DNA from: an uncultured Mycoplasmatota bacterium
GTDB lineage: Bacteria > Bacillota_I > Bacilli_A > RF39 > UBA660
DNA: 60,542 nucleotides
NCBI GenBank assembly: GCA_949288035.1
Contig: CASEIJ010000048.1
Coordinates: 1 to 60,542, forward strand
Reading direction: 5' to 3'
The notes under the pieces are model-generated. The model did no database searches. It saw only the letters and a list, made by a program, of their open reading frames with translations, and was not told the origin of the DNA. Numbering within the stretch: the stretch's first letter is position 1; each line of letters begins with the position of its first letter. Shown one piece after another: positions 47,715-50,403 of the stretch. Position numbers and translations under genes: made by a program.

Positions 47715-47797
47715 TTGTGTAGTACCCCTTTGGTTGCTACAACCGCACGAACAAGGTTTTAAAACAATTGTTACCTTTTAGGCGAGTCTTAGAATTG
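47715..47797 (+). ncRNA. L21 leader-like ribosomal-protein leader
   Basis: gtgtag...ctacaaccgcac...ggcgagtc pattern behind TTGACA(47680)-17-TAAAAT(47703). Confidence 0.6.
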
Positions 47798-47811
47798 TAA
47801 GGAGGGAAATT

Positions 47812-48444: not shown

Positions 48445-48735
48445 ATGCTAGATTTATTAAGATTAAATATTCAATTATTCGCTCATAAAAAAGGGCAAAG
48501 TTCTACAAAGAACGGACGTGATTCTGCAGGTAGAAGACTTGGTGCAAAAGCGAGTGATGGAGAATTTGTAACATCTGGTTCTATTTTATACCGTCAACGT
48601 GGTACAAAAGTATATCCAGGTAACAATGTTAAAATTGGAAAAGATGATACTTTATATACTACAATTGATGGATATGTAAAATTTGAACGTCGTGGTAGAG
48701 ATAAAAAACAAGCAAGTGTTTATCCTACTAGATAA
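48445..48735 (+). CDS. rpmA: 50S ribosomal protein L27 with Prp-cleaved N-terminal extension
   Basis: [12 protein letters not shown]|[15 protein letters not shown]. Confidence 0.98.
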
Positions 48736-48812
48736 AGAGTATTGAAATATAAGACAAAAAAAAGAAGTATGTTGTAATACTTCTTTTTGTGCATCAAAAA
48801 AGTAGAAAATAA

Positions 48813-48841
48813 TTGATATTTTCTAAAAAAAGTGCTATACT
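48813..48841 (+). promoter_or_regulatory. Strong extended -10 sigmaA promoter
   Basis: TTGATA(48813-18)-17-TGnTATACT(48836-41). Confidence 0.7.
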
Positions 48842-48884
48842 TTAGGTGTGAAGAGAGAATAAGAAGGGGAGGAGGTGAAAGTCT

Positions 48885-48914
48885 ATGTGGAGATGGCTAA
48901 CTAGATTTTTCTAA
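48885..48914 (+). CDS. Putative 9-aa micropeptide MWRWLTRFF
   Basis: GGAGGAGGTG RBS 7 nt upstream; tandem TAA TAG stops. Confidence 0.45.
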   Translation: MWRWLTRFF

Positions 48915-48974
48915 TAGGGACATTAACCAAACGTATATACACTGGAATGATATAGAATAGTTAATGTTGACTAG

Positions 48975-49007
48975 TTCCCGGTATTTTAGTGCCGGGAATT
49001 TTATTTT
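48975..49007 (+). terminator. Intrinsic terminator of the micro-transcript
   Basis: ttcccggta-ttttag-tgccgggaa followed by ttttatttt. Confidence 0.85.
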
Positions 49008-49125
49008 ATAACAAAATGAAAGCATCTGGCAATACCTTTTCAATAAATTTTTTTAACTTTACACTTCGTTTTCATTTGTCATTGAAAAAACAATCGCTTT
49101 TTGCTACAATGAACTTAAGATAGGA

Positions 49126-49815
49126 GTGATAAGATTGAAAAATGGGAAAATGACAGAACTATTAAAAGTATTTGCAATTTTTATTATTTACTTAATATAC
49201 AATAGTGTCTTTCAAACAATATTTACAGCCCTAAATATTCATAACGGAATTATTACTATGTTTACTGGAGATGTTCTTTTCTTAATAGGAGTGATTGCTT
49301 TATATTATAAAGATTTAAAAGCTAGTCTAGAAAATCTAGATCAAAGTAAACGTAAATTTATTGGGAAAGTAGCAATAGGCGTCATTTTACTATTTGCTGT
49401 TAACATGGTGGTTGGAATGATTGGAGAAGCATTAGTACCATCTAACACAATTAGTGATGATAATACAACTTCTATATATAATTTATCGCAAATTTCCTTT
49501 GCTTATACATTATTTAAAACCATGGTGTTTGGAGTAATTGCTGAGGAATTATTATTCAAACAATCATTACGTAAAGTAATTCCAAACGATATATTATTTG
49601 TTATTTCTAGTAGTTTAATCTATGCAGTTATGAATGTGATTTATGGTGATTTAAGTAGCCCATATTTACTAACAGATGCATTATCATATTTTGCAGTATC
49701 AGCAACTCTTGCGACATTGTATATTAAAAATCACGATAATATTGTACTTGTCATGTTCATTAAATTCTTCTACAATTTAATTCCAATGTGTATTATGATC
49801 GCGGGGATGTTTTAG
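49126..49815 (+). CDS. CPBP/Abi (CAAX protease-like) membrane protein with degenerate motifs
   Basis: AEELLFKQ (EExxxR), YAVMN (FxxxH), KFFYN (HxxxN); about 7 TMs. Confidence 0.8.
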   Translation: MIRLKNGKMTELLKVFAIFIIYLIYNSVFQTIFTALNIHNGIITMFTGDVLFLIGVIALYYKDLKASLENLDQSKRKFIGKVAIGVILLFAVNMVVGMIGEALVPSNTISDDNTTSIYNLSQISFAYTLFKTMVFGVIAEELLFKQSLRKVIPNDILFVISSSLIYAVMNVIYGDLSSPYLLTDALSYFAVSATLATLYIKNHDNIVLVMFIKFFYNLIPMCIMIAGMF

Positions 49816-49959
49816 ATGAAAGCATTGAATTTGATAAATACATTAGCCGTCGTACAAAAAACTACTTCTGGTCAGAAGAACATGAACATTATAATCATCG
49901 TTGCAGTGATAGTTATTGTAGTTTTGGTAGCTAGTACTGTATTTTCAAACAGAAAATAG
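49816..49959 (+). CDS. 47-aa single-pass membrane peptide
   Basis: Hand translation MKALNLINTLAVVQKTTSGQKNMNIIIIVAVIVIVVLVASTVFSNRK; ATG directly follows the CPBP stop. Confidence 0.6.
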   Translation: MKALNLINTLAVVQKTTSGQKNMNIIIIVAVIVIVVLVASTVFSNRK

Positions 49960-49998: not shown

Positions 49999-50403
49999 AT
50001 GAAAAAAGAAAAATCATGTGGAACGATTATCATTGATTCTAATAAACGCGTATTACTCGTAAAACAAAGGTTAGGATGGGTTGGATTTCCCAAAGGACAT
50101 ATGGAACAGGGAGAAACAGAAATAGAAACTGCTCGTCGAGAAACCAAAGAAGAAACAAATCTCGATGTCGTTGTCGATGAAAAGAAAAGATATACAATCT
50201 CTTATATTACAGCTACTCAGATTGATAAAGAAGTTGTCTATTTTCGTGCCAAACCTATTTCTGATTCTTTACTGCCACAAGAAACAGAAATTGCTGAAAT
50301 CATGTGGGTCGACATCGATGAAGCAAAACAATACTTATCATTTGATAACTTAAAACAATTATGGCAAACCGCTTTAGATGATTTTTATAAAGAACAAGTA
50401 TAA
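49999..50403 (+). CDS. NUDIX hydrolase (Ap4A-hydrolase-like)
   Basis: Intact box FPKGHMEQGETEIETARRETKEET. Confidence 0.9.
   Translation: MKKEKSCGTIIIDSNKRVLLVKQRLGWVGFPKGHMEQGETEIETARRETKEETNLDVVVDEKKRYTISYITATQIDKEVVYFRAKPISDSLLPQETEIAEIMWVDIDEAKQYLSFDNLKQLWQTALDDFYKEQV

Follow-up and report, generated by a model that had tools for sequence, protein, structure and literature searches.

A nine-codon gene under selection for its peptide is linked to CPBP membrane proteins without catalytic histidines in uncultured gut bacteria

The window analysed here is a stretch of 60,542 nucleotides (nt) from an uncultured Mycoplasmatota bacterium (GenBank assembly GCA_949288035.1, contig CASEIJ010000048.1, positions 1 to 60,542 of the forward strand). 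Between rpmA and obg it carries a small transcription unit with an open reading frame (ORF) of nine codons, which would encode the peptide MWRWLTRFF (Table 1). Judged by its sequence, this unit is an autonomous peptide gene with a strong promoter of its own, a near-perfect ribosome binding site and its own terminator, and it is very probably among the smallest stand-alone peptide genes known. Comparison with related genomes shows that the micro-ORF is under selection at the level of amino acids and that, across the loci compared, it is strictly linked to genes for membrane proteins of the CPBP/Abi family that lack the catalytic histidines of that family.

The case for a coding gene comes from the way in which the unit changes between species. 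The whole unit is present in seven other species of the genus. In one of the two most distant of these, G001, the region is ~73% identical and the ORF has three changes, all of them silent (CTA>CTT, ACT>ACA and TAA>TAG); in the other, G006, exactly one codon has been lost in frame to give MRWLRRFF. A preliminary description of the unit, made from the DNA letters and their translations, had offered a translated micropeptide as one reading and codon-level conservation as a way to check it, a check that these silent changes and the in-frame codon loss satisfy. We built a covariance model (R1) on the whole transcript and used it to search outside the genus. It recovered six further genera, matched via the Shine-Dalgarno (SD) sequence and the ORF only, with the peptides MWRWLSRFF, MWGWLKRFF, MWKWLTRFF, MWAWFRRFF, MWKWLARFF and MWKWLSRFF. 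Sequence beyond the stop codon is unrelated in other genera, and the peptide keeps the form M-W-x-W-L/F-x-R/K-F/W-F/L. Across 37 distinct nine-codon loci, column entropy is near maximal (~1.5-1.9 bits) on both flanks, as far as the SD on one side and starting with the base next to the stop on the other; within the ORF, the columns that vary are synonymous sites of Leu and Phe codons, the stop codon and residues 3 and 6. Note that part of this set was retrieved by the ORF pattern itself, so that the evidence lies in the free columns and the flanks and not in the fixed columns.

Given that only the SD and ten codons are conserved beyond the genus, we regard the unit as a peptide gene rather than a small RNA (sRNA) or RNA sponge. 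The preliminary description had also considered a sponge, an sRNA and a dual-function RNA; that the unit is a non-coding RNA in which the ORF is incidental now seems extremely unlikely. What speaks for such an RNA is the compactness of a ~160-nt unit with promoter and terminator, a fold that is somewhat more stable than that of shuffled sequences (z = -2.35) and a weak cmscan match to the Bacillus sRNA ncr952 (Rfam RF02453; 24.0 bits, E = 0.0037 with permissive filters). Outside the genus, however, the 3' part is replaced by unrelated sequence, and the consensus fold of the transcript has almost no covariation (term -0.53 kcal/mol), and we see no conserved RNA structure. The ncr952 score, for its part, is far below the gathering score of 100 bits. 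The two RNAs are alike in having ~150 nt, an SD-like G-rich stretch with an AUG at the start and a terminator at the end, and it is on the SD-like 5' end and the terminator that the match rests; the internal helices are not shared, and neither is the locus, since ncr952 lies between mutL and ymzD in B. subtilis and our unit between rpmA and a CPBP gene. We therefore do not count the unit as a member. An overlapping ORF with a GTG start (MKVYVEMAN, 48875), proposed earlier as an alternative reading, does exist, but we have rejected it: it overlaps with the SD, and other genera do not keep it.

How widely is the gene distributed? Scanning 185,579 species genomes for an SD followed by the motif MWxW[LF]x[RK][FW][FL] returned 36 loci, of which 35 lie in low-GC metagenome-assembled genomes from the gut, variously labelled Bacilli, Tenericutes, Mollicutes, Acholeplasmataceae, Clostridium sp. 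CAG:710, Ca. Aphodocola and Ca. Pelethosoma, which we take to belong to the GTDB order RF39. A scan of metagenomes contributed 31 additional loci, mostly from the human gut. Within the family, 14 of 401 genomes and 9 of 214 genera have the strict motif, and none has a reversed control pattern. The genome to which the window belongs (1.19 Mb, 29.8% GC) holds one copy of the micro-gene, which is the sole ORF with two or more Trp codons among the 55 SD-preceded micro-ORFs of that genome. The unit is thus far beyond chance. Another match with two Trp residues, MFRWWNY on contig C31, is located inside the end of another gene and was dismissed as a chance occurrence; the helix-turn-helix protein adjoining it is not Rgg-like by Pfam.

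The gene that follows the unit had been called Abi/CPBP in the preliminary description, and its product indeed matches PF02517, if modestly (28.1 bits, or 30.7 bits in the genome-wide search, against a cut-off of 22.4). Its true start is probably TTG 49135 or ATG 49150. An AF2 model is all-helical with a predicted local distance difference test score (pLDDT) of 87.9; comparing the fold of this model with solved structures gave nothing significant, and a sequence search of the PDB with the CPBP profile gave nothing relevant. The first family motif, EExxxR, is present as EELLFK in the window and as EELLFR in most relatives. The second and third motifs, FxxxH and HxxxN, are not: they read YAVMN and KFFYN, so that one catalytic His is replaced by Asn and the other by Lys. 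Both replacements are conserved across this CPBP clade, and the corresponding columns of a canonical paralogue, encoded on contig C44 of the window's own genome, read FGGLH and HTFHN.

The association between the two genes can be approached from either side. Starting from the micro-ORF, a homologue of the CPBP protein of the window is found downstream in 31 of the 36 loci, usually at 70-270 nt and rarely at up to 1.1 kb; among the other five, four have too little downstream sequence or no detectable CPBP, and one has a gene for a MATE exporter instead. In L044 (genome G119), ~550 nt are inserted between the micro-ORF and the CPBP gene and contain what appears to be a disrupted prepilin-like ORF (MNKKMVLL and a stop, then a hydrophobic pilin-like stretch in a different frame). 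The pair also occurs away from rpmA (L057, L059, L063, L070 and L086), with proS before it in L057 and Tad pilus genes next to it in L070, and the functional tie between micropeptide and CPBP that had been suggested earlier is to this extent borne out. Using rpmA to fetch 20 loci that do not have the strict motif, we found a variant micro-ORF (MWKWLKRWF, MWKWIYRCIRWF, MWAWLKRFL or MWRWLKKFF) at all four loci with a CPBP gene and at none of the 16 without one.

Starting from the CPBP protein, a profile search in 121 genomes of the family gave 30 loci for examination, 28 of them encoding a CPBP with neither catalytic His; of the remaining two, G074 keeps the His of motif 2 and G033 is canonical. 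An SD-preceded ORF of 7-16 codons, rich in Trp, Phe and Arg, lies 120-580 nt upstream of every His-less CPBP gene with upstream sequence (27/27). G074 likewise has one (MLRWLKRFF), and G033, the only canonical CPBP examined, does not. By comparison, the background rate among 879 genes of the window's own genome is 6.8% by a loose criterion and 0.46% if two or more Trp are demanded. His-less CPBPs that make up a second clade (NxxxE/T/Q and RxxxN; L153-L164, in other genera of the family) have Trp-rich micro-ORFs of their own, including MWSFILRIFGFH, MSWFWRIFGWH, MWRWFFWWM, MGRRKWWWWW, MSFWKWFKWW and MAAGKWWRWILWWK. Peptide type tracks CPBP clade, YxxxN/KxxxN proteins going with MWxWLxRFF and NxxxE/RxxxN proteins with MWSFILRIFGFH, MSWFWRIFGWH and similar peptides.

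A third gene follows the CPBP gene in essentially all loci with enough sequence. In many genera, it encodes a protein of 194-225 amino acids with an N-terminal signal or anchor and a tail of the form ..HCS[DE]YFLTGA[VI]VN[DN]..N.NYIIIG, which is succeeded by a transmembrane helix and basic residues. In the longer proteins the tail takes the form ..HCSDYFLTGAVVND..NYIIIG..KK, and in this genus and several others the ORF that remains, of 47-58 amino acids, is that tail alone. The comparison covered the window and loci L020, L021, L025, L067, L074, L075, L078, L080 and L086. The tail resembles a sorting tag. Micro-ORF, His-less CPBP and tail-anchored protein make up a three-gene module that moves as a unit.

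Members of the peptide family are also found in a different setting. In Eubacterium sp. UMGS127 (~40% GC), MWKWLRRFF is encoded 33 nt upstream of a MATE gene (PF01554, 106 bits), and the CPBP profile has no match in that genome. Contig L116 carries three tandem copies (139-313; MWAWLRRWL, MWRWLLRWF and MWKWLRRFF) in a repeating unit of 66 nt, each with its own SD, ahead of a gene for a MATE protein 46% identical to that of UMGS127, and arrays in L115 and L123 (658-769) precede a gene for an AMP-ligase-like protein. More generally, loci outside the lineage (L116, L115, L118, L123 and L077/L122/L126, on contigs of 35-53% GC) tend to have tandem arrays of two or three diversified copies with a unit of 66-70 nt and a MATE or AMP-ligase-like gene downstream of them; in L118, at a contig end, the array is preceded by a gene for a PlsC-like acyltransferase. 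NCBIfam includes MATE families that are named for peptide export, WgkD (tryglysin) and MbnM (methanobactin).

Which properties of the peptide are constrained? We compared 27 distinct variants of nine residues. The search pattern dictates M1, W2 and W4, and there is little variation within the limits that the pattern allows elsewhere (24 L and 3 F at position 5, 26 R and 1 K at position 7, F or W at position 8, F or L at position 9). Positions 3 and 6 are left free by the pattern. Where residue 3 is neutral, residue 6 is K or R in 10 of 10 variants; where residue 3 is cationic, this is so in 6 of 17 (Fisher p = 0.001, keeping in mind that the variants are not phylogenetically independent). Positions 3 and 6 thus compensate each other in charge, and every variant has a net charge of +2 or +3. 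Modelled as an alpha-helix of ~2.5 turns, MWRWLTRFF has a net charge of +2 and a hydrophobic moment of 0.90, above that of 99.7% of shuffles of its own residues; M1, W2, W4, L5, F8 and F9 line one face, opposite R3, T6 and R7. The polar face therefore consists of the variable positions 3 and 6 plus R7. Such an amphipathic layout fits the design of a peptide acting at the membrane interface, an activity that we offer as a prediction.

Why should a nine-residue peptide be tied to a protease fold without its catalytic residues? The explanation that we favour, and in which we would place about half of our confidence, is that the gene makes an unprocessed, cationic, amphipathic and membrane-active 9-mer that is handled by a pseudo-protease. 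A product of nine amino acids has no room for a leader and, there being neither leader nor processing site, the peptide would be used as translated. Its N-terminal Met is expected to be retained, since methionine aminopeptidase is blocked by a residue as bulky as Trp in the second position. The peptide itself would be the active molecule, and the adjoining genes would serve to handle it. In this lineage, the handler would be a protein of CPBP/Abi fold with the substrate-side Glu-Glu and Asn motifs and both catalytic His lost, which, instead of cutting the peptide, might bind or sequester it in the manner of an immunity protein or receptor. A MATE exporter would take that part in other gut Firmicutes. 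The pairing of the same 9-mer with another handler in a distant lineage speaks for a peptide that is active by itself, and for this reason we rank an effector plus handling protein above a dedicated CPBP ligand. We infer that the peptide is translated in vivo, that it may be membrane-active and exported, and that the CPBP protein may have a protective or receptor role.

A number of observations weigh against this explanation. No exporter adjoins the micro-gene in this lineage, and the link to MATE rests on two independent loci, given that the motif is absent from all 40 searched relatives of UMGS127 and that 0 of 30 searched have a close orthologue of its MATE protein. The module stays at one fixed chromosomal site over many genera and its peptide is more conserved than the partner, both of which are unusual for bacteriocin-immunity pairs; a housekeeping role fits better. 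Those Abi immunity proteins that have been studied reportedly need their catalytic motifs, which are lost here. Finally, the third conserved gene with its C-terminal anchor has no role in a simple model of effector plus immunity.

Both the fixed chromosomal position and the near-universal third gene would be at home in an alternative that keeps the peptide inside the cell, as a subunit or ligand within a membrane module of three genes, where it binds the vestigial substrate cavity of CPBP and tunes the action of CPBP on, or together with, the anchored protein (retention, sorting or signalling). We consider this rather unlikely. It would liken the micropeptide to the small proteins that regulate larger membrane proteins, and the CPBP partner to SpdC/LyrA, Abx1 and CflP, documented non-catalytic CPBP regulators that act as membrane partners or scaffolds without protease chemistry (PMC13692083). 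The partners of these proteins, however, are histidine kinases or a glucosaminidase, and no micropeptide partner has been described. In favour of a ligand are also the confinement of the linkage to CPBPs with lost catalytic His, as against its absence at the one canonical CPBP examined, and the pairing of each CPBP clade with its own type of peptide. The third gene adds a further parallel: the myxosortase MrtX is a catalytic CPBP that cleaves a tripartite MYXO-CTERM tag composed of a Cys signature motif, a transmembrane helix and a basic tail (PMC11980579), and the gene after CPBP has such a tail in many genera. MrtX differs in being catalytic, in belonging to Gram-negative myxobacteria and in having no micro-ORF, and the third gene of the window is the tail alone. 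Against a one-to-one ligand, the peptide occurs with MATE where the CPBP profile finds nothing, and in tandem arrays, neither of which would be expected.

The arrangement of an ORF, then a terminator, then a membrane-protein gene on the same strand also invites the idea of a cis-acting leader peptide, in which stalling at Trp, Phe or Arg codons, or arrest dependent on a drug or metabolite, controls termination at 48973-49007 and read-through into CPBP (elsewhere MATE). The richness in aromatic codons (MGRRKWWWWW, for example) is reminiscent of trpL and pheL, efflux pumps are typical targets of leader peptides, and no terminator separates the UMGS127 ORF from the MATE gene. Yet stop and terminator are 5-73 nt apart, and the spacers are unrelated; in folds of the window constrained by a ribosome at W4, F9 or the stop codon, the terminator is predicted each time and an antiterminator in none. 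An independent extended -10 promoter lies between terminator and CPBP in the window and in most loci (TGnTAnAAT, which we estimate to occur by chance ~0.03 times per 100 nt at this base composition). L080 and L044 keep an intact micro-ORF despite 0.5-1.1 kb and other ORFs before CPBP, constraint extends to features that should not matter for regulation, namely L5, R7 and the compensating charges at 3 and 6, and a row of three tandem copies with an SD apiece is not the design of an attenuator. All this makes a leader peptide improbable. In about a dozen loci, on the other hand, the terminator stem begins no more than 15 nt past the stop and hence within the ribosome footprint, and because of these loci the reading keeps some probability. 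Less probable still, indeed very improbable, is a pheromone of the leaderless communication peptide (LCP) type, such as SIP of S. pyogenes, which would be exported, re-imported and sensed by a cytosolic receptor. LCPs are directly translated peptides of 8-10 amino acids, aromatic-rich and often beginning with MW (MWLILLFL in S. salivarius, for instance), with their own SD and no leader, and are defined by an adjacent, usually divergent gene for a receptor of RopB/Rgg type (PMC10518010). The micro-ORF shares the format, with nine codons and a GGAGG 9 nt upstream. Its neighbours, however, are rpmA and CPBP and no RopB/Rgg-type receptor gene is adjacent; TIGR01716 (Rgg C-terminal) has no match in its own genome, which is 91% complete, although a control genome was positive. 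Published LCPs are uncharged and described as highly hydrophobic; this peptide is aromatic-rich but always has two or three K/R residues. The micro-gene is of the leaderless-peptide kind, differing by its tie to a pseudo-protease.

Returning to an effector peptide with a handling protein, the obvious precedents are the pairs of bacteriocin and Abi/CPBP immunity protein that lactic acid bacteria are said to possess, PlnI and SkkI among them. What is alike is a gene for a small, cationic, amphipathic and probably membrane-active peptide beside an Abi/CPBP gene. The bacteriocin pairs have peptides of 30-60 amino acids with leaders, ABC exporters and intact Abi motifs, whereas the micro-gene product has nine amino acids and no leader, the catalytic His of its partner are replaced and its locus is fixed across genera. 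Nor is there an exporter nearby of the sort that goes with class II bacteriocins, whose precursors carry a double-glycine or sec leader, the flanking genes being rpmA, CPBP, the 47-amino-acid transmembrane ORF, a Nudix gene and obg. Phenol-soluble modulins (the psm-alpha operon of staphylococci) are leaderless amphipathic peptides of 20-44 amino acids that are exported by the Pmt ABC system. They resemble the micropeptide in that the translated product is the final one, in having diversified tandem copies as in L116 and presumably in needing a dedicated exporter for self-protection; we know of no CPBP partner for them. The unit does not have the makings of a type I toxin-antitoxin system either (a hydrophobic toxin of ~20-60 amino acids with a transmembrane helix, plus an overlapping antisense RNA), since the peptide has nine residues and the minus strand offers a promoter-like match at consensus level only.

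Full-text searches of the literature found no published description of these peptide strings, nor of CPBP together with a small peptide. The family is invisible in annotation because gene callers discard ORFs this short, and yet it is conserved over many genera of abundant, uncultured bacteria of the human and animal gut with genomes of ~1 Mb. Going further, it is possible, if in our view doubtful, that these genes of 7-16 codons form a large and so far undescribed class, made up of autonomous micropeptide genes of uncultured gut Firmicutes, and that the member described here is either a ribosomal antimicrobial or effector peptide shorter than any other unmodified one known or a dedicated ligand that turns a CPBP protease into a receptor or immunity protein. 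Either version, if true, would give non-catalytic CPBPs their first defined small ligand. The gene bears on what bacterial CPBP/Abi proteins without catalytic residues bind and on the lower size limit of a stand-alone, selected protein-coding gene. Were the peptide an antimicrobial or a signal, it would be a new minimal scaffold; were it a ligand of CPBP, it would provide a handle on a large and poorly understood family of membrane proteins.

Table 1. Coordinates of the micro-gene unit and of associated features in the window.
Feature	Position	Strand	Details
Micro-gene unit	48813-49007	+	promoter, SD, ORF, hairpin, terminator; ~160 nt
Promoter of micro-gene	48813-48841	+	-35 TTGATA at 48813-48818, 17-nt spacer, TG-n-TATACT, -10 at 48836-48841
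Box TAGGTGTGAAGAGAG	48843-48857	+	surrounds the inferred transcription start (~48848)
SD region GGGGAGGAGGTG	48866-48877	+	GGAGG core at 48871-48875, 9 nt 5' of ATG
Nine-codon ORF	48885-48914	+	ATG TGG AGA TGG CTA ACT AGA TTT TTC TAA = MWRWLTRFF
Hairpin between stop and terminator	48919-48968	+	arms 48919-48927 and 48960-48968, variable loop
Intrinsic terminator of micro-gene	48973-49007	+	12-bp stem at 48973-49000, 5 G-C pairs, then TTATTTT
Probable terminator of rplU-ysxB-rpmA operon	48764-48788	+	GAAGTAT/ATACTTC stem and T-run, read from the sequence
Ribosomal protein L21 leader (RF00559)	47731-47799		53 bits; 5' of rplU, as expected for the operon
Separate promoter of CPBP gene	49082-49110	+	TTGAAA, 17-nt spacer, TG-n-TACAAT
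CPBP/Abi (Rce1-like) membrane protein gene	49126-49815	+	PF02517; motifs EELLFK, YAVMN, KFFYN
Third gene, 47-amino-acid protein	49816-49959	+	..LAVVQK..NMNIIII.., transmembrane helix, basic end SNRK

With regard to the signals of the unit itself, the extended -10 promoter, ribosome binding site, ORF and terminator that the preliminary description had reported were all recovered in place, from the sequence and from a scan for consensus elements. The promoter scores 10/12 in that scan with its TG extension and is retained throughout the genus alignment; in many other genera, TGnTAnnnT boxes lie 38-86 nt 5' of the micro-ORF, and GGAGG precedes the ATG by 6-12 nt. Just downstream of the promoter, the box TAGGTGTGAAGAGAG is nearly invariant in the eight species of the genus, with a single G>A change, and is not conserved in the other genera compared. 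It is kept even in G001, where an insertion of 14 nt comes after it, and it may be an operator or a 5' stabiliser. A second stop codon, TAG at 48915-48917, directly abuts the TAA at 48912-48914.

The pairing of gacattaac with gttaatgtt noted earlier corresponds to the arms of the hairpin that follows, which are paired in the minimum free energy fold as well as in the consensus fold. In G001 and G006, changes to G-U leave its pairs intact, strong compensatory changes are absent, and other genera have non-homologous hairpins in its place or none; it is probably a structure that stabilises the transcript. Stem substitutions in the micro-gene terminator preserve pairing within the genus, and a terminator is found 5-73 nt past the stop in 34 of 39 distinct loci.

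Turning to the neighbourhood, the unit does lie in the rpmA-obg interval, as the preliminary description had placed it: an L21 leader, rplU, ysxB and rpmA (48445-48735) are found upstream, and the PF02517 protein, the 47-amino-acid membrane ORF, a Nudix gene and obg (start 50485) follow downstream in that order. The terminator of the rplU-ysxB-rpmA operon is conserved in the genus alignment and sets the unit apart from rpmA; the consensus scan did not list it because its stem has just 2 G-C pairs. At Rfam gathering thresholds, the window contains two tRNAs and the L21 leader and nothing else. The Nudix gene (49999-50403) separates the CPBP module from obg in G000, G004 and G007. We did not find it in G002, G003, G005 and G006 (compared at L002, L005, L006 and L008), where obg is directly next. 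On the minus strand, a promoter-like match to the consensus (TTGCCA-18-TAAAAT, 49032 to 49003) points into the micro-gene terminator. The TGGCAATAC stretch of this site is retained in most species of the genus, and the site could give rise to an antisense transcript or could be a coincidence among close relatives.

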